A stretch of DNA of 64,000 nucleotides from a virus (IMGVR_UViG_3300033475_000012:1-64000); one strand, 5' to 3'; positions 9,832-64,000 are shown, counted from the first letter of the stretch. Notes: generated by a model from the letters alone, not told the origin. Numbers and translations: made by a program.

Positions 9832-11556
9832 TCAATTATGGTAAAGTCTGCTTCCTCTATGTCTTAAAAAAGTATTTGACGGATTTACAGTGATCGTGTC
9901 ATAGGCTACATTTGTTTTCCACATTATATCAGTAGTGCTGTCTTTGAAAATATAGGGACCGGGAACAGATAATCCAGATATGGGAATATTAGCTCCCGTA
10001 TTAAATGGCATGACAGGCGTAACGGGGCCTGACACAAAAGTTACCACATTAAGATACTCTTTAGACCCAGACGCATATGATATGGAAGGCGTGATTGTAG
10101 CTGACGTAACGCCAGATAAAACTTGATTGGACGAATGTACTGCAGGGGCCGCTAATGTCCCATTATAACACCCTGTTCCCTGACTGCAATTGGTAGCTCC
10201 CGGATTGGCTATGCAATAAAAACAAGTAGGGGTGATAAGTGACCCACTGGTTATGGCAAAAGGAAATATTTGAATGGGATAAGGGATATTCACCATATCT
10301 GGATAGGTTCCATTTAGCCCCCCTGCTGGATAATCGCAAGAAGCCCTATTGTCCATTATTTGCCCCGACTTTCCGCGACCCCATGCCCACGATTCCCCCT
10401 TATTATTCACAAAAACAGCATTCCAGCAATTAGACGGACCCATATAACCACATACCCAATTATGCGTACCAGGGCATACGCTCACCCAAGAGGAAGTTAG
10501 GTATTCTCCTAATCCATTATCGTACGCATATGGTTGGGGAGTCGATCCAGCAGGAGGAGGACTGACAGAATATCCATTCATAGGATACATTTGTCCATTA
10601 CCGATTTCTCCGCATATATTATCTCCGCTAGATATAAGACAAGAATCAACACCAGATTTATTTCCGATTAAAAACACAGCCCCAGCATCCGCAAATGCTT
10701 TTTTGGCTAAGAAAGTACCCACCGAAGCAGAAATGAAAGATGTTATATTTTGTGGTGTATTGGATGTAGATGCGCTTGGACCAGCAAAATACTTTGGATG
10801 ATCACCAATCCCCAATGTCTCGCCGTCGTCTAAGACAATAACGCCAAAAGGACCCGCATCGGCTATATCAACCGCATATCTACCTGATGGCAGTCGGATG
10901 GTATCTGGAAGTGTATAAGGCACCGTTGGGCTACTTCCTCTCCCCAACTGCGCCTTATTGTTAGCTGCTGCCCAACTCCACACATGACCCTTACTGTCCA
11001 ACGCCAGTAATACATATTGTCCCGTTACTTTAATAATATGTGTTCCGTTGGGAAAAGTAGCCCACACAAAAGAAGTTTGATTAACCGCATTATCCGTTCC
11101 ATTACCATGCAGGCCGCCAGCTAGTTCGCCGGCTATTCCTACTTGTCTTCCTGTAGTACTATCGGTAGTTACGATTACATCTGTCCAATATGGAGAGGTA
11201 TTTGAAGCGGTACAATATAATTGAGTGACTGCCGGAAGTGCAGTCCCCGCACTATCAACAGTGATATTTATAGGGCCGCCACACGAAACGCCAAAAACAC
11301 TACCGCCGACATATAAATTACCAGGAGCGATAGGGCCAATATACCCGTCATCATGCGGGCCACCGAATATTTCGGCAACGTAACTCGGCTGTCCTGTACA
11401 AGACTGAGGCACGACATTTAAGATATGATACGCCTTGTGCGTTGACGCCCTATACACAAGATTGCAGTATTCCGCCAAATAAGGATGATCCACCGTGTCT
11501 GGGTTCTGACCCATCAAAATAGTTGGCAATAATAATATAATTAAAATAAATTTCAT
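9832..11556 (-). CDS. secreted RCC1-repeat-like/PKD-like protein, putative receptor-binding or accessory fibre
   Basis: Signal peptide MKFILIILLLPTILMG|Q; RCC1-like 'LALDSKGHVWSW...QLG' and 'SWAWGRGKSGQ'; C-terminal 'GPYIFKDSTTD..YDTITVN' PKD-like; Cys-rich. Confidence 0.6.
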   Translation of the reverse strand: MKFILIILLLPTILMGQNPDTVDHPYLAEYCNLVYRASTHKAYHILNVVPQSCTGQPSYVAEIFGGPHDDGYIGPIAPGNLYVGGSVFGVSCGGPINITVDSAGTALPAVTQLYCTASNTSPYWTDVIVTTDSTTGRQVGIAGELAGGLHGNGTDNAVNQTSFVWATFPNGTHIIKVTGQYVLLALDSKGHVWSWAAANNKAQLGRGSSPTVPYTLPDTIRLPSGRYAVDIADAGPFGVIVLDDGETLGIGDHPKYFAGPSASTSNTPQNITSFISASVGTFLAKKAFADAGAVFLIGNKSGVDSCLISSGDNICGEIGNGQMYPMNGYSVSPPPAGSTPQPYAYDNGLGEYLTSSWVSVCPGTHNWVCGYMGPSNCWNAVFVNNKGESWAWGRGKSGQIMDNRASCDYPAGGLNGTYPDMVNIPYPIQIFPFAITSGSLITPTCFYCIANPGATNCSQGTGCYNGTLAAPAVHSSNQVLSGVTSATITPSISYASGSKEYLNVVTFVSGPVTPVMPFNTGANIPISGLSVPGPYIFKDSTTDIMWKTNVAYDTITVNPSNTFLRHRGSRLYHN

Positions 11557-11590
11557 TCTAAAATCCTATTATGTAGCATGTTTTTATTAT

Positions 11591-16900: not shown

Positions 16901-17446
16901 TGCGCTATCGGCATTAAACACCTTAGTTGTCCCGGAGATAGATTGAGTGATCCATAACCCCGGATTAACAGCAGAATCTACACTTCCGGAAGTATTGCAC
17001 GTTGGACACGAAATTACCCCTGTAGATTGATTGAAAGATATAGGAGATGTTCCGGATATGGCATTAAGGCCTACTTTGGTCGCCAATTGCCCGTAAACGC
17101 CATTTCGCATAGTGTCTACTGAAAACTTTGTAGCATAAGTAAGACTGTCTGAAAAAGATAATATTTGACGCCATGTATGTCCTCCTGAAATCACCGTGTC
17201 TCTATACCATAAATGCCTAGAGCTATCGTCGTATACAATTCCACCTAAAGTATCAAGGCCCGAATTTAACCCAAAACCATTTACGGGATTGAATCCATGT
17301 ATATGCGGGGCATACATATTCAAAAGAGCCCTCCAACGGGAGTCTTGTACGGTTACAGAAGAATTTGATCTGGGGGGCGCAAACGTCTGAGCGGAGGAAG
17401 TTATTCCAACGATCACCAAAATGAAAAGTATAATGAGTTTCTTCAT
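13913..17446 (-). CDS. tail spike/fibre with pectate-lyase-like beta-helix (depolymerase) and Sec signal peptide
   Basis: Start MKKLIILFILVIVGITSSA|Q at 17446, 1 nt after upstream stop; 'VTDYG...TD..YVQACVDSA...GGGTVWIPPG' beta-helix N-cap. Confidence 0.75.
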   Translation of the reverse strand: MKKLIILFILVIVGITSSAQTFAPPRSNSSVTVQDSRWRALLNMYAPHIHGFNPVNGFGLNSGLDTLGGIVYDDSSRHLWYRDTVISGGHTWRQILSFSDSLTYATKFSVDTMRNGVYGQLATKVGLNAISGTSPISFNQSTGVISCPTCNTSGSVDSAVNPGLWITQSISGTTKVFNADSAAMGNFFIRKRDSGTTYVTPSQIGNKQNAISSSNQQVIFNNSGTLGGVGQFLYNTSSNTLSIGSSLGTSNGNLLIGGTSGGISTFSSGGGQLTISGTPLILSSVGNSLIFQTNSSNRANIDNSGNFSINSLAGTGTRLVTSNFSGLLGNFSNSANTIVGYDNSGNLVNMTAGTGISISGGIISNTGGGGSGNTNSNVGTGYRWAIPNTNNIKTVFGSTSAGIGWDSSANANALTITQQAAGTSQNGYLLSTDWNTFNGKLSNITGLVTFSGSNGSLTGSGTLGTPYVISVNDRLDTLWRTPGVDSIKFTIGGRLHEILDSTGSSGGTVSSVSNSDGTLNITPTTGAVVASLALAHGNTWVTNPQTFNGGIIMGNNISFSANNTYQIGTLTNAASHVFSRVFNSDAAATLASASGFSSSLSVGASVGITLISTGQVQLNNYTTATSFPGTPLAFLQSDVSGNVIQAPVSSIQTSLSNTPSGGFPLFNLNASAIRELFAGTNVTIDTVTHVGGVTINSSGTGTVLLPFYRVTDYGVTMSMSGTGTDISPYVQACVDSAFSHGGGTVWIPPGVWAWSSLDMTGMPNVSIMGAGINNTILSEIVVGDTMIKWNNNTFITIPGTNVGNAPGYGYAPISAMLLEGHNKASIGMNLQYIYWFKWNDIAIDSCTSIGLNLKGTLTGQFNNMLIKWCPIAVNADTINRSPGGFVAPNLITFVHCHIYNCASWAFNVNQTQGGIIIEGGDISDEGTTHNTNTGGVHFTNPNTVGVSMLTMRGTWFEHNVGSLIRIESTLANQQVTLENLNISNTLTPSYGLYVNAAFPLQVNVIGTNFTGDSVDLSANSNVTLNEMGPGPAFATSTVAAATRYYYEHNYGTAYSVAWPKGASGAAFVFSTGTGLGTGGTVTLSGFSTSLGGDITIATGTSPAASATIMVYGFDIAWSTVGIAPVITPANTAAKQLAGDAMPLATYTGSFNYPLITSGTIPLDPSTTYVFHLSINGK

Positions 17447-17447
17447 A

Positions 17448-17885
17448 TTAAAACGTTTGAGGCCCATTGATGAATATCAAGAACAAATCTGCCGAAGTAT
17501 AAGTGCCGGGGATAAGAATTTGGACACCAGACACGCCTCCGACTATATCGGGAGCCCATGTGCTATTAGGATAAGATGGAGATGCGGAATTATAGGTTAA
17601 AAATCCTTGACCTTGATAATAAACAATCAGATTAAACCCAGACAAAGGATTGCCAGATGGTGGAATATATTTATTTGATCCATTTAAATCAGCCCCAGTA
17701 AACATTATAATTCCATTGCTGAAAAGCTGGTTATAAAGACACTGCTTAACCGATCCCCACGTACGGAAGGCATATCCCCCAGTCTGGCCTGCTACATTTA
17801 TGAAAAGGATTTGTTCGTTGTCGGCGGGGCACCCGGAGGCCAGCGGCGCTAGTGTAGAAAATTCTCCTTGACAAGGTGCTGCCAT
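17448..17885 (-). CDS. small structural protein, possible fibre adaptor
   Basis: 145 aa, beta-rich, directly upstream of fibre genes. Confidence 0.55.
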   Translation of the reverse strand: MAAPCQGEFSTLAPLASGCPADNEQILFINVAGQTGGYAFRTWGSVKQCLYNQLFSNGIIMFTGADLNGSNKYIPPSGNPLSGFNLIVYYQGQGFLTYNSASPSYPNSTWAPDIVGGVSGVQILIPGTYTSADLFLIFINGPQTF

Positions 17886-17889
17886 GATA

Positions 17890-18291
17890 TTAGTTTAAGA
17901 GTGCGCTACACCCATTTATAAGAATTTGACAATTATTCATTAAAGCATTATGCTGCGAACATCCACACATCTGAACTTCACACCCATTGATCAATATCAT
18001 GCACCCGTTTATGTACGGGAAACATTCTACACATGGACAACATTGACAGTTGGAAGCTACATATTGATCGTAGGCCGACTGAGATTGGAATAAAGTACTT
18101 CCAAAAGTTTGTTCTCCATACTTGACAATGAACGCTCTTTTGGCTATAATGACATTTACCCCTGCATCATAATCCCGGTAGACCATTTCCCCAATGGGTA
18201 TCACCCTATCGCACTGAAATGTGAAATTTACTGGCGATTCCTGTATCTCACCATTGACTATATCAGCCGGAAAAATAAAGCTCTTAGCCAA
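17890..18291 (-). CDS. Cys-rich small structural protein
   Basis: TTG start (an out-of-frame ATG lies 5 nt upstream); C-terminal 'INGC' repeats. Confidence 0.55.
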   Translation of the reverse strand: MAKSFIFPADIVNGEIQESPVNFTFQCDRVIPIGEMVYRDYDAGVNVIIAKRAFIVKYGEQTFGSTLFQSQSAYDQYVASNCQCCPCVECFPYINGCMILINGCEVQMCGCSQHNALMNNCQILINGCSALLN

Positions 18292-18370
18292 CTCATTTTG
18301 GCCGAAAGTTAATGAAAATCAGTAAGGGAGGAAGTGAATGCATCCCATTTGGGGGACAATTGTATTACAA

Positions 18371-19630
18371 TTATATAAAGGAGATGCCCGCTTTAGAAAG
18401 ACGTTCTAATGACTTTTTGGCCTTATCTACACTGTCCATTTTGATAGAAATATCGAATCCCTCTATTGAATAAGCAACCTCTTTGGCTTTTTTTATGGCT
18501 TCGTCCATGGTTCTCCCTAATCCAACTACGGCCCCCATTTCTTTCATTTTTTGACCGTTGGGTGTGTAATATGAAATACCATCGTCGTCAATGACCAAGT
18601 TCTTTATCTTTACAAATTTTTTATTCTCTTCTGGAATTTTTATGGGAGATGGGTCTGTTTCGGCTAAATCAGATTTTATTATAAACTGACAGGCATATTC
18701 GTAATCAAATCTTATTTCAGGTATTTTACCACCAGCAATCGTCCAAACTATTTCTGGGAAATTAGTCCACCAACTTGTTAGGATGGATGTGGGTGGCTGT
18801 CCAAAACGACAAGTGTAATCGAGCATATACCCCACCTTATCTTTGCCTATGATAGTTTCATTAGAGAATATACCGTTATACTCCATATCATTAAAGATCG
18901 GGGCAAGCCTATCGGTAATATCCTTTACTTGTCTTGGCAACGAATGATAAGGCACCATCCTCGTTATATACATACAATCTTTAACTTCTAGACCGGCACT
19001 ACAATAATAAGTATACGCTCCATTGGCTGTGGGAATATCAATACCTATTTCGGATAATCCGTCGATATGGTGTTCTACTGTATATTTTGGTTGATTTTGG
19101 AATATCTTCAATCCTGATTTAATTCTTTCAACTTCACCTTTTGAAAAAATCCAATCCTTATGCTCCCATGTTTCTCCATCCCCTCGAAGTCCCCCCTTAA
19201 CCCAAGAATGCGGCGCATTTTTCAATATTTCAGATAAACCATCAACACCATCAGCTTCGTAATAAGGGCCAACCGGCAGACCCAACTCTTTTAATATTCT
19301 CTTGCCTAATCTTCTGTCATTTTCTAATTCTGATGCAAAAAAACTACCGAATACTCTCTTACCTAAATTTTTCCAATGTTTCTGAAGGTAAGGTTCATGT
19401 GCGTCCGTAGTTACAACAATACTACATTGATCTATAACAGAAGCCCATTCCTTTACCCGTTCGATATTAGGCACATTACGAGCCATATCCATAGCCTCGT
19501 GAGAAGGATTGCCATTCATCACATAAGGACCGGTATAGAAAACACGTTCGAAAGACTCCGCAAGACGAATAGCGATTTCCATCTTGTCATAGTAGTCATA
19601 TACTAAACAGCATTCATTGGACAAATCCAT
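18371..19630 (-). CDS. PurD/GARS-like ATP-grasp ligase
   Basis: Start MDLSNEC at 19630; 'ASELENDRRLGKRILKELGLPV', 'WVKG', 'TVEHHI', 'LDYTCRFGQPP' match GARS-type ATP-grasp motifs. Confidence 0.75.
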   Translation of the reverse strand: MDLSNECCLVYDYYDKMEIAIRLAESFERVFYTGPYVMNGNPSHEAMDMARNVPNIERVKEWASVIDQCSIVVTTDAHEPYLQKHWKNLGKRVFGSFFASELENDRRLGKRILKELGLPVGPYYEADGVDGLSEILKNAPHSWVKGGLRGDGETWEHKDWIFSKGEVERIKSGLKIFQNQPKYTVEHHIDGLSEIGIDIPTANGAYTYYCSAGLEVKDCMYITRMVPYHSLPRQVKDITDRLAPIFNDMEYNGIFSNETIIGKDKVGYMLDYTCRFGQPPTSILTSWWTNFPEIVWTIAGGKIPEIRFDYEYACQFIIKSDLAETDPSPIKIPEENKKFVKIKNLVIDDDGISYYTPNGQKMKEMGAVVGLGRTMDEAIKKAKEVAYSIEGFDISIKMDSVDKAKKSLERLSKAGISFI

Positions 19631-19634
19631 AACA

Positions 19635-20501
19635 CTAAGTTGTTTTATATTTCCAATAAAATCCTTTAAATACAATTCCGCTAACACAGGCATCGGATAT
19701 CCCATGCCTATAGGCTCCTATATTGTCTTTTTCAGCCCGATTGAGAGAAAGATATTCGGATATAATTTCTCCTTCTAATGATATTTTTAATACATTAGGG
19801 AATCCTCTGGATTTCTTTATTTTATTTATGGATTCGTCCGTATGTTTTTTACCAAAAAAACTATTTTTTTCATTTCTCCTATCTTCGGACATTTTTGCTT
19901 TCGTTTCATCCGATGCTTTACGACCGAAACTATGACAATATGGTCCCCTTTTTCCATACGCCCAATGTTTTTCTCCTTTTTGAGATTCACTCATTTTTTT
20001 GATTGACTCTTCGGAATGTTTTTTACGGTAAAATGGGTTGTCTTTTCCCATTTTTTTACCCTTTTTTATGGCACTAATTTTATCTCCCGTTTCTTTTGGC
20101 CTTTTTCTACCTCTATGAAATTCAGCCAATCTAGCATATTTTTCCTTAGAAATAAAACACTTCCCTTTTCTGCTTTCGCTCATCTTCTTTTTGGTTGATT
20201 CAGAATGAATCATACCTAATACTCCATCGCCTCCGTTAGTTAAGTTACACAAAATGCCACCATTAGATTTCCTTCCATACAAACTAATAAACTCCTTTTC
20301 TTTTTCAATAGCATCTTCCCACGATATATTATCCACTATTATTTGAACCTCATATGAAGTATTTTTAACTATATTATGCCAATGCCTATTTCTGTCCAGC
20401 ATAGAATTAGCTCTTGTGTACTTTCCATTATCATCACTACCTATACCAATATAAAATGGCTCGTTCTTATCAAGTCTTATATGTCTATATACGTATGCCA
20501 T
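19635..20501 (-). CDS. free-standing GIY-YIG-like homing endonuclease with NUMOD3/NUMOD1 repeats
   Basis: 'AYVYRHIR...FYIGIG', repeated 'KHSEESIKKMSE' NUMOD3 motifs. Confidence 0.85.
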   Translation of the reverse strand: MAYVYRHIRLDKNEPFYIGIGSDDNGKYTRANSMLDRNRHWHNIVKNTSYEVQIIVDNISWEDAIEKEKEFISLYGRKSNGGILCNLTNGGDGVLGMIHSESTKKKMSESRKGKCFISKEKYARLAEFHRGRKRPKETGDKISAIKKGKKMGKDNPFYRKKHSEESIKKMSESQKGEKHWAYGKRGPYCHSFGRKASDETKAKMSEDRRNEKNSFFGKKHTDESINKIKKSRGFPNVLKISLEGEIISEYLSLNRAEKDNIGAYRHGISDACVSGIVFKGFYWKYKTT

Positions 20502-44528: not shown

Positions 44529-45518
44529 CTATTTTAATTTGTCGGTGATTTGTTTGAGTTGATGAGCGGCCCGATATGCAACGGGATGAACAGGATGATC
44601 ATACACCCATTGTACCATTGAATCTCCCTTCGCTTCGATACCCTCAGCAAGGATAGTCTTTTTATCTTTACCGGCTACCAGAACTCCGTCTTTAGTTGTG
44701 TCCAAAAGTCCGTATGCCTTGGCCTTGGCGAAGGTATCAGACACCTCCTGCTTATGGCCTTTTACCTTGTTCATGAACTCGGTTGGAACCGAATCGGCCA
44801 GGCCCATCAAAGCATCAAAAAGAAGGTCGTCGTGAATTTCAGCATTATGGGTAAGACCCTGAACTATGCCATAAAGGTTACGGAGAGAATCACGGTTAGA
44901 AGCCGCATTCTTTACCAACAGGATACATTCGCCTTTGTCCTCGATAGCCTTGGAAACCATTTTCAATTCCTGGCCTTCGTTTTTCTCCTTGTACATATAG
45001 GAGATATGGCTAGGACTTTTGGAAATGCTGTCCTGATTATAGGCGTGGTTCTTGATGAACAAAGTTTTGTATTTGTCCTGCTGTTCGTCGAACTCGTTCT
45101 CGCCACTGAGCAATTCCAAGAAATATACTTCAGCGGAATTCGCGTCGTCGGGATTGATATTAGAATCGGCATTCAGAACAAGGTTCTGGTAAAGCAAATC
45201 CAAGGTTTCATACCCCTTAAGATACCGGGTCTGAATCAGCGTCCCCCGGGGATCTCCCCATTTAAGGAACTCGATCTCACCACGGTAAGCAGAATCCTTT
45301 ACATCTACCGGGTTGGAAGGAATCTTTCCATCGATCTTTCGTACGGCCCAGTTTTCGGAAAGATTAGGGATGCCGCATACACCCCGTCGATTGACTACCT
45401 TCCCGGACAGGATACCTTCTTGGTGGCGCGTTTGTCCGCTGCCCTTTTCAAGGAACCCTGTTTCAATATACGGCGGCCGGGGATCTCCTGCGATTACGGT
45501 ATATAGTTCTTTAGCCAT
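44529..45518 (-). CDS. conserved head-module protein following MCP
   Basis: 329 aa immediately downstream of MCP, as in crAss-like gene order. Confidence 0.6.
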   Translation of the reverse strand: MAKELYTVIAGDPRPPYIETGFLEKGSGQTRHQEGILSGKVVNRRGVCGIPNLSENWAVRKIDGKIPSNPVDVKDSAYRGEIEFLKWGDPRGTLIQTRYLKGYETLDLLYQNLVLNADSNINPDDANSAEVYFLELLSGENEFDEQQDKYKTLFIKNHAYNQDSISKSPSHISYMYKEKNEGQELKMVSKAIEDKGECILLVKNAASNRDSLRNLYGIVQGLTHNAEIHDDLLFDALMGLADSVPTEFMNKVKGHKQEVSDTFAKAKAYGLLDTTKDGVLVAGKDKKTILAEGIEAKGDSMVQWVYDHPVHPVAYRAAHQLKQITDKLK

Positions 45519-51664: not shown

Positions 51665-52735
51665 TTATTCCGTATTTTTTACCGTAATTATGTCAATGTC
51701 GTTCATGCAGTGAATCTTTCTTCCTTCTATGACTACATCGAAAATATCGAAATCATCGACGACGACAGTATCACCCGTTTTTGCTCCAACTTTTTCTTCC
51801 GATTCCTTGGATATTGCTAGTATCTTCCGTTCGAAAATCTTCAACGTTTCGCTATATAAAATGCCACCAGCAGACACACGTTGTACGGTATTTGATTCAT
51901 GGACAAGGAATACATAGGGGTCAAAGCTGATCACTTCATTGTCCCGAACAACTCCGTATACTGAGGTTAATGTTTCGTAGTCTCCCTGAACGGAAACCAA
52001 CATATCTTTTGGGCATAGTCGTTGTCCGAATGATTGTTTTGTAGGGTTTTCTTCGGTAGACCTATTGGCTCTGACCCATTCGTCTTGCCCGACATAACTC
52101 GTTACAGCCACAACGGTAACCAATTTATCTTCTCCATCATAACCAACGATGATTGTTTCGTCGTTGTCCACCAGATAATCCAAAATAGCGACATCTCCCA
52201 CTTGTGCGTGATGAATGTTTTCTCCGACGAATACAACTTCCCCAGTAGACACAAACCTAGCATTATGATCGGTATCATCGCTCGTTGTGGGATTATACAT
52301 GAAAAGATCGGTTACTGTTCCGTCATCACGGATAATCTTTTTGGTAAATAAAGACTCCCTCGCCTCTTTACTTATCTTCACAATAACGTGGTTGGGATGG
52401 CAAATCAACTTACCCTCGACTTCTTTACAAAGAACGTCATCTTCAGTAACCATTACACAATCCATCCCATCGTACACGAATTTCTTTTGTTCTGTGTTCT
52501 TTTTGTATATAACCGCATCGCCTTCTTTAAAGAACGAGCATTTTTTACCAGAGGCCAATATCTTTCCCCGGTTCTGCTTTTTCTTGTACAAAATATCTGA
52601 AGCTAAAACTTCATCTTGCCCCCACTGATAAAGATTAAAATTACTTCTCAATACCACTAGCCCTGAAGGTCTTTGCTCTTCAGTAACTATATCTTCTACT
52701 GCTATTAACACTAAATTTCTGAGTGGTTGAAACAT
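51665..52735 (-). CDS. groES: tandem triple GroES/Cpn10-like co-chaperonin fusion
   Basis: Unit 1 'PLRNLVLI..SGLVV..GKILASG..GDAVIY..EDDVL'; unit 2 'HPNHVIVK..GEVVFVG..VGDVAIL'; unit 3 'FDPYVFL..GGIL..GDTVVV..DIDII'. Confidence 0.75.
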   Translation of the reverse strand: MFQPLRNLVLIAVEDIVTEEQRPSGLVVLRSNFNLYQWGQDEVLASDILYKKKQNRGKILASGKKCSFFKEGDAVIYKKNTEQKKFVYDGMDCVMVTEDDVLCKEVEGKLICHPNHVIVKISKEARESLFTKKIIRDDGTVTDLFMYNPTTSDDTDHNARFVSTGEVVFVGENIHHAQVGDVAILDYLVDNDETIIVGYDGEDKLVTVVAVTSYVGQDEWVRANRSTEENPTKQSFGQRLCPKDMLVSVQGDYETLTSVYGVVRDNEVISFDPYVFLVHESNTVQRVSAGGILYSETLKIFERKILAISKESEEKVGAKTGDTVVVDDFDIFDVVIEGRKIHCMNDIDIITVKNTE

Positions 52736-52745: not shown

Positions 52746-54779
52746 TTAACGTCTTGGTGGAGTTATTTCCCATATTCTTGCCATGTAACTTCTAACATGG
52801 TCGTCTGTCACGTTTGTTCGCTTGGCTTGTTTCAACGCATATTCAAGCATAATTTCAGACATCGTTACGTCAAATGCTGTTGTATTTGCCATGTCAAAGT
52901 TCTCCAAATCAATTAGGCCGTCTTCAAAAGGATAACAGGCAATATGATCTTTTTCATCAATGGTTTTGGGAGCCCGGTATCTTGTCTGTAGCATCTCCAC
53001 TCCATTCTTTACTATCTTACCAGTACTATCAGTCCATATACCACACCCTCCATCTTTTTCATTATTCATTAGGAATCTTCCCATCCCTACCTCTTCAAAC
53101 ATTTCTTTTACACTTTCCACTTGCCGTTCGTGCATTAATGAACAACCAAAAAACTTACATGCTTTAGTCGCCTCTCGATGCACATCTTTAGGGTCGTCCA
53201 TACGACCAAGAAATAGAGCGGCCTTTTCATCCTCCAAGAAATCTTCACTATCTGGCTTGTTAAAATAATCAAATCTTTTATGAATGATGATAGATGCTCT
53301 TGAAAAGTTAGAACTTTTTATATCTTCTTTTCGATATCGCACAGGGTCATACCCTCCATAAAACTCAGGATTGATAGGCGGAATGACTTGGCCATTATCG
53401 GTTACAAAGAACCGATTGCTGGCATCTATTTTACGGTCAATAGAAATAAAAGGAAGCAACGAAATTAGCCATAAGCCAGACGGATCTTGTTCGAAGACGA
53501 TGCGCCCAGATGACCCCTCATTCAATACGCCCCTTACATATGGCTTATCGTCGTATGCCTTGCCCTCTAATTCTTTTCTTCTAGAAACCAACCGTATTTT
53601 GTCGAAATACGACGCTTCTGACGCGCTAATAAGGGCCTCATCCTCAGTCAATGGCAATTTTCTTTTCTCGTAGTAATATTCCTTTGTTCCCTTTGTTTTT
53701 TTATTAATCTCGTTTTCTATCCACTCTTCGTTTCTAGCTTCATCAATTTCTCCGTATTTGTCTGGCAATAACTCAATGGGCAGGTATTGGCTCCATAGGC
53801 TACTAACAAATCGTTTCACAAAACCGCTAATCGTTGTTTTCTTCCCTGGCAACAAGGAAGATTCCCCAGCCATCTTTATCCACTCTTTCGTAGATTGTAT
53901 AACTGAATCCGAGTCGCCGGTAGTGGACAGAGCAGACAGTTTACCGCGACGGCCGGCATTACGAATAGTCTTTCTGTTTACCTCGATGGTCTGCCGGGGA
54001 TTGGCATCAGTAGGATGTTTAGAAACCTCATCAACAGTTACCTTCATCTTTTCGGTTCCGTCCATCGCTTTTTCCTCAGTAGGATATACATAGACCCGGC
54101 CGCCGAGCCAAGGTTCGCCCTCCGAGTCATCTTTGTTATTGACTAATTCTAGCGAATTACGCGGGCGCTTCCCATTACTCTTATAGTAATTCTCCCGCAT
54201 CCAAAAAGGACGACTGAAATAGGCTTCGAGAAGGGGGAACAGAAGGGTCTTTTTAGCCTTGTCCATTGTGTCGGACTGAAGGCCGATATTGTTATTGAAG
54301 TCAGAAAGGAGTACGTAAATATTCTCCGTTGTCTCTTCCGTGCTCATCCCATAGCGTCGCGGCTTGATCCACATCGGGCCATCTATCTCGTCTTGTTCTG
54401 GCTGCCAATACCAATCTCGAAAGTAAAAATCCTCTCTTTGTGAACGATTATGCCGGAGAAAGCGGTTGTTGTATTTATTGAAAACCAAATGATCAACATT
54501 CATCCCTGTGAGATAAGTTGGGACTCCGTTATTCATAAAATACATACCATTCAGCCACCGATAGCGCCATTTTTCTATGTATTCAATCCTGTCTTTCTCC
54601 GACATCCGACGAACATCTCTAATGTCTAACTCGAAAGTAAGATCGGCAGGCGTCCGCCAATACTGATCCTCTTTTTTTAGATTATAATACAAAATCTCCC
54701 GCTCCGGAGGAAGGGGCGGGAGTTTATATATAATTCCCTGCTTGGCATCAAGAGTTATTATCTGACCCATCCTCAACAA
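52746..54779 (-). CDS. terL: terminase large subunit
   Basis: Walker A-like 'KPRRYGMST', Walker B 'KVTVDEVSK', 'LSTTG' coupling motif, nuclease 'GGYDPV'. Confidence 0.9.
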   Translation of the reverse strand: MLRMGQIITLDAKQGIIYKLPPLPPEREILYYNLKKEDQYWRTPADLTFELDIRDVRRMSEKDRIEYIEKWRYRWLNGMYFMNNGVPTYLTGMNVDHLVFNKYNNRFLRHNRSQREDFYFRDWYWQPEQDEIDGPMWIKPRRYGMSTEETTENIYVLLSDFNNNIGLQSDTMDKAKKTLLFPLLEAYFSRPFWMRENYYKSNGKRPRNSLELVNNKDDSEGEPWLGGRVYVYPTEEKAMDGTEKMKVTVDEVSKHPTDANPRQTIEVNRKTIRNAGRRGKLSALSTTGDSDSVIQSTKEWIKMAGESSLLPGKKTTISGFVKRFVSSLWSQYLPIELLPDKYGEIDEARNEEWIENEINKKTKGTKEYYYEKRKLPLTEDEALISASEASYFDKIRLVSRRKELEGKAYDDKPYVRGVLNEGSSGRIVFEQDPSGLWLISLLPFISIDRKIDASNRFFVTDNGQVIPPINPEFYGGYDPVRYRKEDIKSSNFSRASIIIHKRFDYFNKPDSEDFLEDEKAALFLGRMDDPKDVHREATKACKFFGCSLMHERQVESVKEMFEEVGMGRFLMNNEKDGGCGIWTDSTGKIVKNGVEMLQTRYRAPKTIDEKDHIACYPFEDGLIDLENFDMANTTAFDVTMSEIMLEYALKQAKRTNVTDDHVRSYMARIWEITPPRR

Positions 54780-57027: not shown

Positions 57028-57238
57028 TATATTCAGGATTAGGTATTTGTTTTAATACTTTGCCGCCATGTGGACAACCACAGTTTTCTACGACAAATAG
57101 AAACCGACCGCAATCACATTGCGAATTATCATATTTTAAGTCGTTGGCCAGCGGCATGTACCCGTCCACCCCATGAAACTCAAGGCACTTTCTTTTGGCC
57201 GGTTGTTCAGTTTGCTGCTGGTTGTTGGCCCAATTCAT
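57020..57238 (-). CDS. small Cys-rich (metal-binding?) protein
   Basis: 'CDCG...CGCPH'. Confidence 0.55.
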   Translation of the reverse strand: MNWANNQQQTEQPAKRKCLEFHGVDGYMPLANDLKYDNSQCDCGRFLFVVENCGCPHGGKVLKQIPNPEYNG

Positions 57239-58229
57239 TTTTTCTTGTTTGAATAAAGTTAAGGATATTTTCCAATCTTACGCGCCAGGAGTGGTGTTTT
57301 AAGACCCATTCCCGGCCAACCTTAGCCAGTTCTTCCCGTTCTGCATCGTTTTTCAAGAGTCGGTCAATCTCCGTTTTTAGCATATCAAAGTCCAACCAAG
57401 TCTTTATTACGTTCTTATTGAAGTCTTGGTTTATGCCGTAGTAGTATTGGGAGATAGTCGCGCAACCGCAGCCCATGGCTCTCCAAATTCGGTCTGAAGT
57501 ATATCCCCGGCGATTGAACTGGTTTTGAGTAATGGCTATTTTTGCAGTATTGTAAATGGCTATTTCATCATTCTTTTCTGCAATTCGGGAATGTCCGCCC
57601 CAGCCCATGCCGTAAACAGCGAACCTATTCCCGTATTCATTTCTCAAAAAATCAACCATTTCTACCCGTTGTTGAGCCAAAGGAAATTCATCTTTCAGAG
57701 AGGATGTAGTATAATTTCCGCCAATGAATACTATTTCAGGAAATGGGAACACCTTCTTTTCATCTCCTATTTTATAGGAGGTTATCAACTCAGGCTGAGG
57801 CGAATAAACATCATAATCGGCTGCACTATTCGACCACATTACGTTATTGAATCCGGCCCTCTTTAACTCGTCTACCGTTTCCATATCTCCTACCACAACT
57901 AATCCTAAATGCGGTGCTAAGTCTTTTATCCATCCTATGTCCTGTCTAACGTCGAACGAAAAAAGAACCGTGAATGTTTTTTCGGGAAGCGAATGTAATA
58001 AGTCAGCGTCTAAATTTCCGCCAGATTGAACATGGAGAAATAACAAATCCGGCTCTTCCATATGCGCCTTTGCAATAAGCCTTTCCCACATGCCTATGAT
58101 TCCTTCATTTGCTTTTACGGACTGCCAATTAAAGACACTCACCTCTTCAAATAGTTCTTTCATGGCATTGGTGATGCCGGAAGATCTATAAGAAGGGCTT
58201 TCGATAGCGCAGTGCAGTATTGACTTCAT
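57207..58229 (-). CDS. glycosyltransferase, CgeB/Glyco_trans_1_2-like (GT-B)
   Basis: 'IYNTAKIAI', 'SDRIWRAMGCG', 'WVLKHHSWRVR'. Confidence 0.8.
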   Translation of the reverse strand: MKSILHCAIESPSYRSSGITNAMKELFEEVSVFNWQSVKANEGIIGMWERLIAKAHMEEPDLLFLHVQSGGNLDADLLHSLPEKTFTVLFSFDVRQDIGWIKDLAPHLGLVVVGDMETVDELKRAGFNNVMWSNSAADYDVYSPQPELITSYKIGDEKKVFPFPEIVFIGGNYTTSSLKDEFPLAQQRVEMVDFLRNEYGNRFAVYGMGWGGHSRIAEKNDEIAIYNTAKIAITQNQFNRRGYTSDRIWRAMGCGCATISQYYYGINQDFNKNVIKTWLDFDMLKTEIDRLLKNDAEREELAKVGREWVLKHHSWRVRLENILNFIQTRKNELGQQPAAN

Positions 58230-58233
58230 GTTA

Positions 58234-59094
58234 TTAATAATTTAACCATGCTAATGGGTCTGGCTTGGCGATCTTATTTAATATTATTTCTCTGTTCTTT
58301 TCAAAGGTATAGTATTCCTTAAATATTTCAGCACCTCGTTCTTGCTTTTTGATTATTTCGGCATGGGATATAGAATGAAGTATTTGTTCAAGCCTTGGTA
58401 ATTCTTCCTCTTTAACCAATACCCCGTATTCATTGAAGTCTATCCAATGAGGTTGGACGTGAGTATCCGACAAATATACCGGAATGCTACCGTATTCTAG
58501 GGCCTCCAATATACGAAAGGAGCTGGCCCCGCACCCACGGGGGCATATTGTATAAGTCGATTTTGCAAGGATTTGACAGAAGTCTCTAAGCGGGTGTTGA
58601 GCCTCGGATACATAAATACTACGGCCGCTGAAATCTCTCAAAAGCCGCTGGCGAATCGGATGAGTGTTACGCCCGATAAAATTAGCAAAAAGGCTTTTCT
58701 GGATACCGACCTTAAAATTATGCGGCGCACACAATAATGGCAACGGATAGTCTATTCTGCCTCCACTCATCCCAAAACATAATATATCCAAATCTTTGAA
58801 ATCGACCATAGGCCCTAAGTCGAATTGATGAATACAGTAATACTTCTTTGAACGATCCAAGGTGTCAACAAAGTCTTGGAGCCTTTTTACGGCCGCCTTA
58901 TCCTCCCCAAATTTATGTGTAACTAAATAGCCGTTAAAGAAAATGGGCAAATATTCCCGTTCCGTCTCCCCTGGCATGTACGGGTAATTGTCATAGAACC
59001 ACTCTTCAAAGTTGATTTTATTATCCGAAGGATAAGGAAAACTTTGACGAATCCTAAACTCAGGTGGTACTCCGTAATGTGATTTCCAGTTCAT
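58234..59094 (-). CDS. exostosin-family (GT47) glycosyltransferase
   Basis: 'YTICPRGCGASSFRILEALEYGSIPVYLSD'. Confidence 0.85.
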   Translation of the reverse strand: MNWKSHYGVPPEFRIRQSFPYPSDNKINFEEWFYDNYPYMPGETEREYLPIFFNGYLVTHKFGEDKAAVKRLQDFVDTLDRSKKYYCIHQFDLGPMVDFKDLDILCFGMSGGRIDYPLPLLCAPHNFKVGIQKSLFANFIGRNTHPIRQRLLRDFSGRSIYVSEAQHPLRDFCQILAKSTYTICPRGCGASSFRILEALEYGSIPVYLSDTHVQPHWIDFNEYGVLVKEEELPRLEQILHSISHAEIIKKQERGAEIFKEYYTFEKNREIILNKIAKPDPLAWLNY

Positions 59095-60260
59095 TTATAT
59101 TTCCATTTAAATCCGTACGCTGTTTTCTTAACCCCAGAACACACCCTTACTATGCAAGACGTATCTGATCGCCCAAAAGACAGAGCCGCATCTAATGCAG
59201 AATCCCAATCTTTAATAAATTCGTTTTCTTTTGAAAATTGTTGTATCGGCCTTTTGTGCCCGTATCTTGGTGACATATTCAGTGTAGACTCGTCTTCCAA
59301 ATATTTCCAAAAAAATCCACCGGCGGTTCTGCCCTTTTTCTTACAACAATCTTTTATGTGGCTAGGGCATAATGACAAACAATCAGCGGCTATTTTTATA
59401 CTATCAAAAGACCTTACAAAATCACCAGACATGGAAAATTGACTGACCCTTCTATAGTTTGATGTTTTCTTCCTTTTAAATTGTACGCTTTCACTCGGGG
59501 AAGAACCGGAATACGCCCAGAAAAAACCGCCTACTGATTTTTGCCTATTATTACAACATCGACTAATACTTCCGGCGTTTATATTTAAAGACCTCGCTGC
59601 ATCAATCATGGAATCCCATTTCTTAATAAAAATTAGCCCAATGCCGAACTGATAAACGGACTTAGAATATGGGTTTAGATGTCCCAACCTACCAACAGAC
59701 ATCTTTTTATAAAAGATGGGGTTACCCCAATTTTTCTTAGAAACCACGGAACAACCCATCCGCCTTTCACTGGTAAATACTTGTGGCTTTCTAACCAGAG
59801 CGTCCATGACTTTTCTTTTCTTATCAGACCATCCAACACCCCTTCGCATAGAGGAAAAGAGAGCTTTTGTTTCATCGGAATGCTTTCGACCAAACCAAGG
59901 ATTTAAAACACCTATTTTGCCCTTCATGTGTCTGCCCATCTTAGCCCTGCTTTCATCAGACATTTTTGACCCAAGTCTACCGCCATTCATCAAGTTTAAT
60001 CCGACAGAAGAATTAAAGGAGTTGTATTTGTCTATATAATATGTCTCGTAATAATTTAAAGAATCCTCGCTACAATAAATCAACACTTCAAACAAATGTG
60101 CATCCCACCCGTATTTTTTTATAGAATTATACAGCTTGGGTTGACTTTTACACTGGACATTGGCATAGTTTCTTTTCCGTTTAGCTAGATTAATTGATTG
60201 ACCAATATATATTCGTCCAGAGGGAGATGTTATTTTATATATTCCGATGAGCCTATTCAT
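59091..60260 (-). CDS. GIY-YIG homing endonuclease with NUMOD3 and three NUMOD1 repeats
   Basis: 'GIYKITSPSGRIYIGQS'; three 'V.QF....F...W.S...AA..L....I..CC......AGGFFW' units. Confidence 0.9.
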   Translation of the reverse strand: MNRLIGIYKITSPSGRIYIGQSINLAKRKRNYANVQCKSQPKLYNSIKKYGWDAHLFEVLIYCSEDSLNYYETYYIDKYNSFNSSVGLNLMNGGRLGSKMSDESRAKMGRHMKGKIGVLNPWFGRKHSDETKALFSSMRRGVGWSDKKRKVMDALVRKPQVFTSERRMGCSVVSKKNWGNPIFYKKMSVGRLGHLNPYSKSVYQFGIGLIFIKKWDSMIDAARSLNINAGSISRCCNNRQKSVGGFFWAYSGSSPSESVQFKRKKTSNYRRVSQFSMSGDFVRSFDSIKIAADCLSLCPSHIKDCCKKKGRTAGGFFWKYLEDESTLNMSPRYGHKRPIQQFSKENEFIKDWDSALDAALSFGRSDTSCIVRVCSGVKKTAYGFKWKYK

Positions 60261-60891
60261 TGCTCAAATGTTTTCTAACATAAAAAGCGTCCGTCCACGC
60301 ATCGCCAACCCAAGGGCCAGTTTCAACTCTTTCGAAATCAGAAAGAATCGTATCTATTTCTTCTACAAGAGCGTTCCCAGAATAAACAGATTTTTTATTT
60401 ATCTCGGTATAAACCCAATTTATTTGTCTAAGAGTTTTTAAACCGCCCGACAAGACTCTGTTTTCATATCCCTGACAATCCAAGACAAGGAGGTCATATC
60501 CCTTGTTTATTAATCCAAGATTATCAAGAATATCAACATCTACCAATTCTTCATCAGTAAATTTTACCGAATCGTGAAGAATAAGATGTAGGTCTGGGCG
60601 AAGAATACTATTCGATTGCCCGTGGTTGACTGTATTATCCCCGGTATACATCGTCACATCCACTTGCGATTTGTCGCCGCAAGCCAGATTAAACAATTTG
60701 ATATTCTCCATTCCAAAGAACTTCTTATGAAGAACACCGAAGGCTGCCGCACAGGGCTCGATAAGCGCCATTCGTTTTATACCTACCGCCACATAATCGT
60801 CGTACTCTTCACAAAAGTGAGCGCCGCAAACGATTACTCCATTTGCATTGATGTTATACTTTTTTACAAGTTCTTTGAAGTTAAGGAGCAT
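60253..60891 (-). CDS. FkbM-family SAM methyltransferase
   Basis: 'CGAH..EE', 'IEP', 'LVLDCQGYE..VL.G', 'YTEIN'. Confidence 0.85.
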   Translation of the reverse strand: MLLNFKELVKKYNINANGVIVCGAHFCEEYDDYVAVGIKRMALIEPCAAAFGVLHKKFFGMENIKLFNLACGDKSQVDVTMYTGDNTVNHGQSNSILRPDLHLILHDSVKFTDEELVDVDILDNLGLINKGYDLLVLDCQGYENRVLSGGLKTLRQINWVYTEINKKSVYSGNALVEEIDTILSDFERVETGPWVGDAWTDAFYVRKHLSNE

Positions 60892-60892
60892 C

Positions 60893-61540
60893 TTACTTTC
60901 TTTTTATAACGATTAGTTTTTCATACGCACATATCTCTACTGAGTCAATTAGTTTTTTGAATATGGCTGAATCTTCAGAAGTAAAGTACGGATTTACTAT
61001 CTCTCCTGTTTTTAAAAATTCTTTGAACATATGCAAGGGGGTGTCTTCAAACCTATGCACCAATCCGCCCCAATAAAAGGAGTCCAAATTGCAGTGGCAG
61101 TCTTCAATATAATAGATTCCGCCTTCGGTCATTTTACCCCAAAATATCTCTTTGAAGGAAACAATCTGATGATGTGCGTTATGACTACCATCATCCACAG
61201 CCACTTCGTATTTGCCGGGAAGCGATCGAAGTAGATTGACGTCTGATTGATCCCCTTGTATAGGGTAGAATCCTTGGTTCCGACACCATCGTGCGCTAAC
61301 AAACTCAGGATTCATGAACAAATCCAAACAATGAATATCCACCTCATTTGCGCCGAAAATGTCATTCCATATTTTCAGCGATTGCCCTCTGGCAACGCCT
61401 ATTTCCAACAAAGTCCGACACGACTCGGGTAGTGTTCTGGAATAAACCTCCCAATACCCATGCTCTCCTTTGTCGGTATTAAGCCATCGATTTAGAAAAC
61501 CAAAACGAGCAAGCCTTATTTCCTGTATAGTCTTATCCAT
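60893..61540 (-). CDS. class I SAM methyltransferase (sugar O-methyltransferase-like)
   Basis: 'LLEIGVARGQSLKIW', 'GDQSD', 'DDGSH', 'GGIYYIED'. Confidence 0.85.
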   Translation of the reverse strand: MDKTIQEIRLARFGFLNRWLNTDKGEHGYWEVYSRTLPESCRTLLEIGVARGQSLKIWNDIFGANEVDIHCLDLFMNPEFVSARWCRNQGFYPIQGDQSDVNLLRSLPGKYEVAVDDGSHNAHHQIVSFKEIFWGKMTEGGIYYIEDCHCNLDSFYWGGLVHRFEDTPLHMFKEFLKTGEIVNPYFTSEDSAIFKKLIDSVEICAYEKLIVIKRK

Positions 61541-61543
61541 AGG

Positions 61544-62377
61544 TTAGTATTTTATTCTATGCCATCGAGGAGGCATAATATCCATGGTAGCCAATGCCGA
61601 ATTATCGGGTCCAAAGTAATTGTCTTCATGCGGACAAACCACCATAATTGAATGTCTATTTAAGATGCCAGCCAAAACAGAAAAGCTACTATTAGATGTT
61701 ACCAAAAAAGGACAGTTGCACATGGCTATAAAATCATCTTGCGTAGTCCCTATTGAAAATGAAAATTGATCTTCAGAACTAATAAAATATTTTTTCACAA
61801 ATCCTCTACAGTATGGAATGTCGTCTGAACAAAACATGAATTTGGGAAGTCTCACCCATGAAGATGTGAAATTATTTTGAATAAAATGAATGGCAGATAG
61901 CAAATATTCATCTGTAACGACCGGATGTTTTGTTGAATATTGTAAGTAATCGCCCCTTCTGACATGAATAATAACCATCTCTGTGTTATACTCAGCATTA
62001 TGATAGCCTATTGATAAGTTAAATTCATTTATAAGATTAGACTGCCACCCATCAATATACCGCCAACTTTGAAAGTATCCTGTCCTAATATCCTTTGTCC
62101 CGATCATTATGTTTTTATCTCTCCACTCTTCTTTGAAAGGCAGTTCGACGAATGAGTGCCGCCCATCATTTACTTCAACTATTTCAAGATCGGGATTCCA
62201 ATTTGGATTTTGTAAGTGCTGGTGATAAGTCGGCCAAACTGATGGGGCTAGCGATTCTTTTGGCGCGCAATACTCTAATCCATGCTTTTTAGCATAAACC
62301 CACCCCGTCATTTGCTGCCAAGTCGAGTTGGCGAAACGCCCTTTCGTAAATACGCTTACCATTACGCTTTGGTCCAA
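61544..62377 (-). CDS. GT11 alpha-1,2-fucosyltransferase-like
   Basis: 'GRFANSTWQ', 'IHVRRGDY', 'SDDIPYC', 'NSSFS'. Confidence 0.85.
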   Translation of the reverse strand: MDQSVMVSVFTKGRFANSTWQQMTGWVYAKKHGLEYCAPKESLAPSVWPTYHQHLQNPNWNPDLEIVEVNDGRHSFVELPFKEEWRDKNIMIGTKDIRTGYFQSWRYIDGWQSNLINEFNLSIGYHNAEYNTEMVIIHVRRGDYLQYSTKHPVVTDEYLLSAIHFIQNNFTSSWVRLPKFMFCSDDIPYCRGFVKKYFISSEDQFSFSIGTTQDDFIAMCNCPFLVTSNSSFSVLAGILNRHSIMVVCPHEDNYFGPDNSALATMDIMPPRWHRIKY

Positions 62378-63093
62378 TTTTTATAAGTCATCCCTAGTAC
62401 TATTTTATTTACTGCGGCCCTTCCGATGTTCATATCTTTTGCAATTATAAATTGTGGCACTCCACTTTTATATTTTTTCATCACTTTTTTCACTTGAGAT
62501 TCTTTAAGTTTAAGATTGTTTTTGGCTTCCCTCCATTCATGGCCAAGATTTTTGGTCATAAAACCCCAAGTCCTCCCACCTCTAACGTTATTTATGCAGC
62601 TTATGGTTACTCCATACTTTTTTGCCAATTCACGTTCGGTATACTCCCCAGTAGAGTATAATTTAAGCATTTCGACGACTTGTTGCTCGCTTAATTTAGC
62701 ACCGGGGCCTTTTTCACCTAAATGACACTGTAATCCAGTAGCTATGGCATGTCTTTGGTTTTCCAGCTTAGTGGCCCATTCAAGATTAACAGCCCTGTTG
62801 TCCCATTTTATTCCATTTTTGTGATTAATTTGAGACTTTTTACTAGGGTTCGGTTTAAAAGCTTTTCCAACCAGCCTATGAACAAGACGCCCATGCTCCT
62901 TTTTGTCTTTAAATAAAGAAACTCTTACGTAATCGTCTTTGCTTGGTTTTAGCTTAAGATGTATCCCCTTTTTAATATATCTGCCCCCATATGGAAGATA
63001 CCCAATAAATCTATCCAATGACCTAACTCGACCCAGATTACTTATTTCGTAATACCCAGTAAACCCCCATATTGGTTTCCAAATTTCTTTCAT
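62362..63093 (-). CDS. NUMOD4-HNH homing endonuclease
   Basis: 'EIWKPIWGFTGYYEISNLGRVRS', 'INHKNGIKWDNRAVNLEW'. Confidence 0.9.
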   Translation of the reverse strand: MKEIWKPIWGFTGYYEISNLGRVRSLDRFIGYLPYGGRYIKKGIHLKLKPSKDDYVRVSLFKDKKEHGRLVHRLVGKAFKPNPSKKSQINHKNGIKWDNRAVNLEWATKLENQRHAIATGLQCHLGEKGPGAKLSEQQVVEMLKLYSTGEYTERELAKKYGVTISCINNVRGGRTWGFMTKNLGHEWREAKNNLKLKESQVKKVMKKYKSGVPQFIIAKDMNIGRAAVNKIVLGMTYKNWTKA

Positions 63094-63797
63094 AGTTCAA
63101 TAATCATCTTTTCTATCTCAGAAACTTTTTTCATATTTTCATTGAGGTCTTTTAGGAAGCCAGATTCCGAATGTTGGAGGTGATCATATTGCATTCCCGG
63201 AACGACATATAGACTACCCCCGGCTTTTAACCATAGATAGTTGAAGAATATAGTATCCGAAGCTAGGATTGACGGATCGTGTCGATATACCTTGCAATAA
63301 GCCTCACGCGGCACTACATAGTTGGCGGTGTTACACATACAGCGAAACATGGGGTTATCCATAAATCCTTTAGCATTCTCTTTCGTAAAGGACATGCTGG
63401 CAAACTCTCTGTAATCGAAGGACGGGCGCGCCCATTCTGGACAGAAAATCGTTCCGCTCATTGCGTCTGGTTCGGCCCCATTCAATTCGGCGTATAAAGC
63501 ATCAAGGTAGCCGGGCGAAAAGGTGTTATCTGAATCCCATAGACAAACAAGCGGCATTGTACAGTGAGCCACTGCATCTGCCTTGTTTTTTGACATATTC
63601 ACGTTCTTGTACTGCTGAAAAAGAACCACCTTATCGTTATTCCGATAATAGTTACTTAATCGATGAAAGGAACCGTCTGTAGAGGCATCATCTGCGATAA
63701 TGATACTGTTTACTCGTTCATCATTCAACACCTGTTCGATGGCGTTTTTTGTCATCGACTCACGATTATACGTAGTTATTGCAATGTCAATTTTCAT
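63090..63797 (-). CDS. GT2 (GT-A) glycosyltransferase
   Basis: 'IAITTYNR', 'IADDASTDGS', DxD in 'WDSDN'. Confidence 0.9.
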   Translation of the reverse strand: MKIDIAITTYNRESMTKNAIEQVLNDERVNSIIIADDASTDGSFHRLSNYYRNNDKVVLFQQYKNVNMSKNKADAVAHCTMPLVCLWDSDNTFSPGYLDALYAELNGAEPDAMSGTIFCPEWARPSFDYREFASMSFTKENAKGFMDNPMFRCMCNTANYVVPREAYCKVYRHDPSILASDTIFFNYLWLKAGGSLYVVPGMQYDHLQHSESGFLKDLNENMKKVSEIEKMIIEL

Positions 63798-64000
63798 ACA
63801 AAAAAGTTACCGGAGGGTGCATCCAACGGTATCTCGTCCGGCCTGACGGCCTTTAGTGAAGTGTTGTCCCTCCGGTATCCTTATCGTTAAAAACTAATGC
63901 CTCTGTTTTTAACGAGATATCTTTGGATGCGGGACTAAGGTACAATCTTAGAGTTATTCTGCAAATTTAATTTTTGGGTATGTTTTTTAAAGGCTCCTTC

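Follow-up and report, generated by a model that had tools for sequence, protein, structure and literature searches.

A portable cassette of soluble glycosyltransferases and sugar O-methyltransferases recurs in unrelated uncultured phages and may glycosylate phage proteins

The stretch of DNA analysed here (the window; 64,000 nucleotides, IMGVR_UViG_3300033475_000012:1-64000) corresponds to bases 1-64000 of an 80,291-bp IMG/VR virus record and carries, immediately upstream of the phage's packaging and head genes, a block of glycan-modifying enzymes. We find that this block is a portable, widespread virus module which recurs in dozens of unrelated uncultured phages. As judged from the encoded sequences, it appears to be a phage-borne, all-soluble assembly line of five glycosyltransferases and two sugar O-methyltransferases. 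We tentatively favour the reading that this line works in the cytoplasm and places a fucosylated, O-methyl-capped glycan on phage proteins, probably virion proteins. Comparison of the cassette DNA with cultured phages gave no match, and no description of this ordered cassette was found in the literature.

Six enzymes of the block are encoded within the window, all on the minus strand and upstream of the gene for the large terminase subunit (TerL), with junctions that overlap or are spaced by 1-4 nt (Table 1). A sequence-only reading of this DNA had placed these six enzymes between positions 57207 and 63797, on the same strand as TerL and upstream of it; all of them are present there and their catalytic motifs are intact. 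The curated cut-offs of Pfam were cleared by the GT2, GT11, FkbM, GT47-like and CgeB-type enzymes, and neither transmembrane nor signal segments were detected in any of the six. GT2 contains the motifs DDAS and DSD and has orthologues of 38-42% identity in the equivalent cassette slot of three other phage contigs (G001, G003 and L106). Residues 138-144 of GT11 read HVRRGDY and thereby fit HxRRGDY, the conserved donor-binding motif of the GT11 family. The FkbM enzyme has orthologues in G001 and G003 (55-57% identity); for GT11 and FkbM, no meaningful sequence match was obtained in the PDB. The Methyltransf_24-type enzyme (MT24), which scores just under its Pfam cut-off, is backed by phrog_21658 (1e-24) and by phmmer matches in the PDB to MycE (3ssm, 5.6e-6) and demethylmacrocin O-methyltransferase (8ia9, 5e-5). 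Because these two are its nearest solved relatives, the label of a putative sugar-type O-methyltransferase is fair.

AlphaFold models were evaluated for the two last enzymes of the block. The model of the GT47-like enzyme (predicted local distance difference test, pLDDT, 86.8) has a GT-B fold closest to human exostosins, with EXT1, EXT2 and EXTL3 as top PDB matches in Foldseek (E 6e-11; template modelling score relative to the query, TMq, ~0.55), and in sequence the alignment is confined to the C-terminal half. The chlorovirus enzyme A075L (GT114) was considered as an orthologue of the GT47-like enzyme and rejected, as it ranks 20th (TM 0.37-0.38, E 6e-6) and gave no phmmer match. The CgeB-type enzyme is 340 aa long, or 318 aa with a later ATG. 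Its model (pLDDT 93.3) shows the fold of GT4-type retaining GT-B enzymes such as BshA, PglA and MshA, and searches of cultured phages and of PDB sequences returned no match for it.

Upstream of GT2 lies an open reading frame (ORF) of 214 aa that extends beyond the window. The protein alone had no Pfam match; it clusters with a family that adjoins the cassette in 21 loci, and 17 of the 18 aligned members of this family match Pfam Glyco_transf_25. An EDD motif is invariant in the family, including E71-D73 in this phage, and in the PDB the family profile matches mimivirus R655 and procollagen galactosyltransferase 1. Judged by its family, the upstream ORF is probably a GT25 enzyme, and the set therefore comprises seven enzymes. 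Neither SDR epimerase/dehydratase families nor nucleotidyltransferase families were found in the whole 80-kb record. The dependence of the cassette on nucleotide sugars of the host, proposed in the sequence-only reading from the lack of sugar-nucleotide genes, is hence a sound inference.

Table 1. Glycan block and adjoining features (positions counted from the first base of the record, which is also the first base of the window).
Feature	Position	Strand	Evidence
GT25-like glycosyltransferase, 214 aa	63935-64579 of the record; only the 3' end (63935-64000) in the window	minus	ORF and family profile
137-nt leader with two hairpins, between GT25-like and GT2 genes	63798-63934	minus	fold prediction
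GT2 glycosyltransferase, 235 aa, soluble	63090-63797	minus	PF00535 4e-18, 66 bits (cut-off 23)
HNH + NUMOD4 homing endonuclease, between GT2 and GT11	62362-63093	minus	Pfam
GT11 (alpha-1,2-fucosyltransferase family), 277 aa	61544-62377	minus	PF01531 6e-18, 65.5 bits (cut-off 23.9); phrog_2644
Methyltransf_24-type sugar O-methyltransferase (MT24), 215 aa	60893-61540	minus	Pfam 24.7 bits (cut-off 26.3)
FkbM-family methyltransferase, 212 aa	60253-60891	minus	PF05050 (Methyltransf_21), 35.1 bits (cut-off 22.7)
GIY-YIG + NUMOD homing endonuclease, between FkbM and GT47-like	59091-60260	minus	Pfam
GT47/exostosin-like (RXYLT1_C) GT-B glycosyltransferase, 286 aa	58234-59094	minus	Pfam 52.2 bits (cut-off 33.4)
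CgeB-type (Glyco_trans_1_2) GT-B glycosyltransferase	57207-58229	minus	Pfam 66.7 bits (cut-off 25)
356-aa protein with GroES/Cpn10-like N-terminal part, between TerL and portal-like genes	51665-52735	minus	

A search with the GT47-like protein retrieved three IMG/VR phages (G001-G003), and a profile scan retrieved 80 IMG/VR loci on contigs of up to 675 kb. Neighbouring genes were then clustered across 84 loci carrying the GT47-like gene. The commonest order is the one seen here, (GT25)-GT2-GT11-MT24-FkbM-GT47-like, with all genes on one strand. Beside the GT47-like gene we found FkbM in 70 of the 84 loci, GT11 in 62, GT2 in 53, MT24-type enzymes of two subfamilies in 29 and 22, a nucleotide-sugar epimerase/dehydratase in 36, GT32 in 23, GT25-like in 21, GT10 in 15 and GT7 in 11. 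No ORF with at least three transmembrane-like segments lies in, or up to 1.5 kb from, any of the 84 cassettes; in line with the earlier statement that flippase and oligosaccharyltransferase genes are missing from the window, the cassette carries no export or transfer proteins.

In G001-G003, the enzymes GT2, GT11, MT24, FkbM and GT47-like follow in the same order, and a GT7 replaces the CgeB-type end enzyme. G001 is a complete genome of 60,958 bp with terminal repeats. No TerL or capsid similarity was detected between G001-G003 and the present phage (G000), and what they have in common is only the cassette block, the homing endonucleases and the primase-helicase. Fusions of FkbM and GT47 (~500 aa) are frequent in other phages. 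Among the carrier records checked, 19 are at least 90% complete (41-72 kb); an integrase match is absent in 11 of these and a recombinase match is present in 8, and one carrier record is classed as a provirus. In 47 carrier records, Pfam Terminase_6C, used to map how far the cassette lies from the terminase, matched no gene. A small gene for a lipoprotein or signal-peptide protein follows the cassette on the same strand at L003:11809-12198, L005:7950-8468 and G002 18318-18827, and the present phage has no counterpart of it. An expanded cassette was found at positions 5696-20211 of a contig (L108) from a metagenome-assembled genome (MAG) labelled uncultured Flavobacterium, which is probably a large phage binned into the MAG. 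It holds a GT6, three GT2, two FkbM, an 853-aa epimerase/C-methyltransferase fusion, and a GDP-mannose 4,6-dehydratase and an epimerase/reductase adjoining its GT11; a class II ribonucleotide reductase follows directly after the cassette.

The branch of GT47-like enzymes to which the protein belongs is almost entirely viral. It has 385 homologues; the best 120 of the 385 are all located on metagenomic contigs, the longest of 89 kb, and none of these is bacterial-named. Among 185,579 bacterial and archaeal species (one genome each) only four matches were obtained; one of these is L106, which was binned as a Taibaiella MAG and is clearly a phage contig of G001-like type, and another is L108. The nearest Atlas clusters are 84-100% viral, one of them consisting mainly of giant viruses. 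More distant versions of the cassette occur in two cyanophages, S-SKS1 and P-SSM2, as well as in huge phages. The top viral match of the GT47-like enzyme is an exostosin-like protein of Synechococcus phage S-SKS1 (29% identity, TM 0.8), whose gene sits between epimerases and a fucosyltransferase. The FkbM enzyme is 41-45% identical to FkbM proteins of the cyanophages P-SSM2, P-SSM5 and S-SRM01, and the P-SSM2 copy (45%) lies inside a glycan cluster which also holds a GT11; the GT11 of the present phage shares 24-27% identity with cyanomyovirus genes. For MT24, identities of 28-35% were obtained with methyltransferases from the mycobacteriophages Wildcat, Omega and Cosmo and from Mycobacterium abscessus prophages (~35% for Wildcat and Omega); its Omega relative is gp17 (34%), whose gene comes after those of the major head protein and of a glycosyltransferase. 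For the GT47-like, GT11, FkbM and GT25-like enzymes no mycobacteriophage match was found.

Cytoplasmic glycosylation of phage proteins, which the sequence-only reading had named among its alternatives, ranks first among the roles considered for this cassette. In the mechanism we propose, the enzymes would use GDP-fucose and UDP-sugars of the host as donors and S-adenosylmethionine as methyl donor, and would build a short fucosylated oligosaccharide with O-methyl caps stepwise in the cytoplasm. FkbM would act on or beside the sugar added by the GT47-like enzyme; these two steps are presumably coupled because both enzymes often form one polypeptide. The last enzyme, which differs among phages, would set the outer sugar. 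The acceptors are, we infer, most likely the phage's own proteins, which would be glycosylated before lysis, and the resulting coat would alter recognition or stability of the particle. By analogy, mycobacteriophages and chloroviruses offer precedents for glycosylated virions; for mycobacteriophages, virion glycosylation is reported in Freeman 2023, as cited in passages of PMC12619734. A long-lived enzyme set found only in viruses fits a virus-owned acceptor better than it fits a recent capture from polysaccharide loci of the host, and since 11 of the 19 near-complete carriers are without integrase match, the set must bring a benefit during lytic growth. The ranking thus rests on the virus-only lineage, the fixed core, the carriers without integrase match, the adjacency to head genes and the relative of the methyltransferase in Omega.

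Several observations weigh against virion proteins as acceptors. The cassette is patchy within the lineage of this phage. A scan of IMG/VR with the single TerL protein found no relatives, and a scan with a TerL alignment found only two relatives at 35% identity (G004, 100 kb, and G005, 83 kb) in addition to distant Flavobacterium-phage types; none of the enzymes is present anywhere in G004 or G005. In length, the capsid protein and the protein beside it do not differ between these two cassette-less phages and the present one. Passages of PMC12619734 report glycosylated C-termini for capsid and tail-tube subunits of mycobacteriophages, and the equal lengths imply that no comparable tail extension is linked to the cassette. 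Furthermore, the present phage and G001 share the cassette and no detectable structural protein. The cassette content of closer TerL relatives was derived by matching entries between independent match lists. On this basis, a relative with 82% TerL identity (75,636 bp) appears to have kept a GT47-like gene of 73% identity, one with 59% TerL identity (18,135 bp) would carry an FkbM-GT47 fusion and a CgeB-like gene, and a contig of 2,895 bp from a relative seems to hold just TerL and the GT47-like gene, apparently abutting; this last arrangement counts in favour of virion proteins as acceptors, like the position of the block beside the head genes in the present phage. The CgeB-type end enzyme would accompany the cassette in at least nine contigs.

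The remaining points against virion proteins are at the same time points in favour of remodelling of the host envelope, which we regard as possible, if less probable, and place as a close second. Here, the soluble enzymes would extend a host glycolipid, either the lipid A-core of lipooligosaccharide (LOS) or lipopolysaccharide (LPS) or an undecaprenyl-linked unit of capsule or O-antigen, at the inner face of the membrane; the host would export the product, and other phages or the progeny would no longer adsorb to the altered surface of the infected or lysogenic cell. GT25, GT11, GT10, GT32 and GT2 are families typical of outer-core synthesis in LOS and LPS, including Lewis-antigen-type outer cores, and transferases that are soluble and act in sequence can do without a dedicated flippase or polymerase, in agreement with the lack of membrane proteins at the cassettes. 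The homologous cyanophage cluster of P-SSM2, with its 45%-identical FkbM and its GT11, was interpreted as LPS genes (PMC1079782), as were genes of S-SCSM2R (PMC12801897). In G001-type phages the cassette is placed antisense among tail genes and is followed by a gene for a small lipoprotein or exported protein; together with the recombinase matches in 8 of the 19 carriers and the single provirus record, this placement looks moron-like. However, the LPS interpretation of the cyanophage clusters was never experimentally checked (PMC1079782). Borrowed genes for the editing of host glycans usually have close homologues in hosts, whereas bacterial genomes almost entirely lack the GT47-like branch and the cassette. 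A fixed core of five enzymes across presumably different hosts would also be odd for a variable host glycan, and the 11 complete carriers without integrase speak against envelope conversion as well.

The mechanism originally proposed, in which the host O-glycan gains an outer arm and is then attached to exported fibres, found no support in a link between cassette and fibres, and we consider it improbable. Here, the phage enzymes would extend the lipid-linked O-glycan core of Bacteroidota, and the flippase and transferase of the host would load exported fibres and host surface proteins. The background that had been given for this proposal is correct: O-glycans of Bacteroidota have a conserved core, a possible common acceptor, and a variable outer part with fucose and O-methyl sugars (PMC8698959). 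The absence of an initiating transferase, flippase and oligosaccharyltransferase from the cassette agrees with such a role. Three fibre-like proteins (9832-11556, 11591-13912 and 13913-17467, minus strand), one with an RCC1-like domain, have Sec-type signal peptides, and two of them are enriched in the sequon D[ST][AILVMT] relative to shuffled sequences (6 versus 1.6 expected and 14 versus 3.7 expected). The predicted co-occurrence of the cassette with sequon-rich signal-peptide fibres was not borne out. G001, which carries the cassette, has one sequon-enriched signal-peptide protein (695 aa), whereas the cassette-less G005 has two that are equally enriched (57773-62889), one of them with a polysaccharide-lyase domain; sequon-enriched signal-peptide proteins are also present in the cassette-less Flavobacterium-type phages L022 and L045, and no large protein of this kind was found in the cassette-less G004. 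For the host to glycosylate exported phage proteins, a cassette is therefore not required. There was no local enrichment either, as exported-looking large ORFs make up 6 of 697 (0.9%) within 10 kb of 80 cassettes and 4 of 322 (1.2%) beside TerL in cassette-less phages. In addition, related clusters reside in cyanophages, whose hosts do not belong to the Bacteroidota, the phylum for which this O-glycosylation is described; the host system's conserved fucosyltransferase is reported to be GT2-type and not GT11 (PMC8698959); and a literature search found no paper linking phages to this O-glycosylation system. If the mechanism did operate, the virus would re-code a general bacterial protein-glycosylation system and all exports of the infected cell, the fibre-like proteins of the phage among them, would bear a phage-specified arm with fucose and methyl groups.

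A glycan built on a modified DNA base of the phage, by which the phage would evade restriction, is the least probable of the roles weighed and appears very unlikely. Phage transferases are known that attach mono- to oligosaccharides to DNA (Pyle 2024, as cited in passages of PMC12619734), and T4 alpha-glucosyltransferase is among the remote GT-B fold matches of the GT47-like enzyme. This match reflects generic GT-B similarity and lies far below the exostosins. The thymidylate-synthase-like hydroxymethylase (PF00303) is absent from the present phage and from G001-G003, including the complete G001; as a control, the same search detected it in 10 of the 14 reference genomes. Without hydroxymethylase, DNA is unlikely to be the target. 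We also know of no O-methyl sugars or fucose on DNA.

Two homing endonuclease genes interrupt the block in this phage (Table 1). The junction between GT2 and GT11 is occupied by the same HNH family in L121, L169 and L175, and at the junction between FkbM and GT47 other phages have either an HNH gene or FkbM and GT47 fused in one gene. HNH genes at cassette junctions were seen in L121, L123, L169 and L175, so that the same two junctions are hit in several unrelated phages; this recurrence suggests that, among co-infecting phages, the DNA of the cassette serves as a conserved target of homing. Within 9 kb, three or more HNH paralogues are present in this phage. In the leader between the GT25-like and GT2 genes, a 10-bp GC-rich stem encloses a long loop; then comes a U-run, with which the second of the two hairpins ends, 2 nt ahead of the ATG of GT2. 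Its minimum free energy is -41.6 kcal/mol with a z-score of only -2.0, a modest signal, and it had no Rfam match. The leader may act as a terminator or attenuator between the two genes. The Bacteroidota-type promoter pattern was not enriched.

The record is linear with a completeness of ~69% (CheckV), and a second contig of the same phage has 89,250 bp. Nearly all genes of the record are on the minus strand. In gene order, a primase-helicase (~66.6-68.5 kb) is followed by small ORFs, the glycan block and TerL (52746-54779), with two further HNH genes and two unknown ORFs between the block and TerL. After TerL come the GroES-like fusion, a portal-like protein of 841 aa, head genes, very large internal proteins, fibre-like genes and a holin. 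TerL shares only 29% identity with that of Flavobacterium podophages. For most structural proteins neither Pfam nor PHROGs returned a match, the fibre, head and portal proteins received no names from PHROGs, and no tRNA genes were found in the record. The GroES/Cpn10-like protein is conserved in G004 and G005. Beside the putative major capsid gene, positions 44529-45518 (minus strand) encode a protein of 329 aa without signal peptide that contains six D[ST][AILVMT] motifs versus 0.9 expected (p ~0.0005 by shuffling), and homologues of it are present in the cassette-less G004 and G005. The N-terminal part of a 299-aa protein (8655-9554, minus strand) matches the Pam3 gp28 holin family twice.

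The ordered core GT2-GT11-MT-FkbM-GT47-like with its swappable end enzyme, the virus-only GT47 branch and the natural FkbM-GT47 fusions provide a concrete experimental target, and cultured carriers of related clusters (S-SKS1 and P-SSM2) make experiments feasible. If the glycan is placed on virions, self-made sugar coats would reach well beyond mycobacteriophages, to abundant phages of Gram-negative bacteria that have not been cultured, and would matter for how phages are recognised, for their stability and for therapy. Were the glycan placed on the host envelope, the cassette would represent a common surface-conversion system of the lytic cycle.

Compared with known systems, the cassette lacks the defining features of Gtr-type seroconversion modules, lfg-type loci and DNA glycosylation systems. 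In Gtr-type and other O-antigen modification modules, membrane components (GtrA flippase, GtrB, GtrC, Wzy or an acetyltransferase) are expected, whereas no polytopic ORF was found at the cassettes. The lfg-type O-glycosylation loci of Bacteroidota hold a Wzx-type flippase within the locus, while no flippase lies in or near any of the 84 cassettes, which form a virus lineage and not a host locus. Both are alike in that soluble transferases and methyltransferases serve, or would serve, fucosylated and O-methylated glycans (PMC8698959, PMC6120980), and in that exported proteins of the phage bear the sequon; enzymes for the outer glycan have their genes in the lfg region (PMC8698959). Closer likenesses are found among the viruses. 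The mycobacteriophage sets (Che8, Corndog and others), known here through citations in passages of PMC12619734 and through the gp16-gp17 neighbourhood of Omega, also combine soluble glycosyltransferases and a methyltransferase near or in the structural genes and, as far as these passages describe them, have no membrane or export proteins. They differ from the cassette in that sequence similarity is confined to the methyltransferase (MT24, 28-35%), and glycosylated C-termini are reported for their acceptors, whereas no such tail was found linked to the cassette, whose host is a Gram-negative of Bacteroidota type. In chlorovirus PBCV-1, transferases and a methyltransferase make a fucose-containing, O-methyl-capped glycan. 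The PBCV-1 enzymes (A064R, A075L/GT114 and A111/114R), as described in parts of PMC11571054 and PMC7826918, resemble the cassette as a virus-encoded, cytoplasmic and host-independent set, and the GT47-like branch has relatives in giant viruses; yet the host is eukaryotic, A075L reaches a TM of only 0.37 versus 0.55 for the exostosins, and orthology was shown for none of the enzymes. The cyanophage 'LPS' clusters (P-SSM2, PMC1079782; S-SKS1; S-SCSM2R, PMC12801897) have the same enzyme families on one strand, but they are larger, encode nucleotide-sugar epimerases of their own, of which the present phage has none, follow another gene order and come from phages of cyanobacterial hosts. The cassette is a further member of the known class of phage multi-glycosyltransferase clusters, alongside the cyanophage and mycobacteriophage sets and, by analogy, the chlorovirus machinery.

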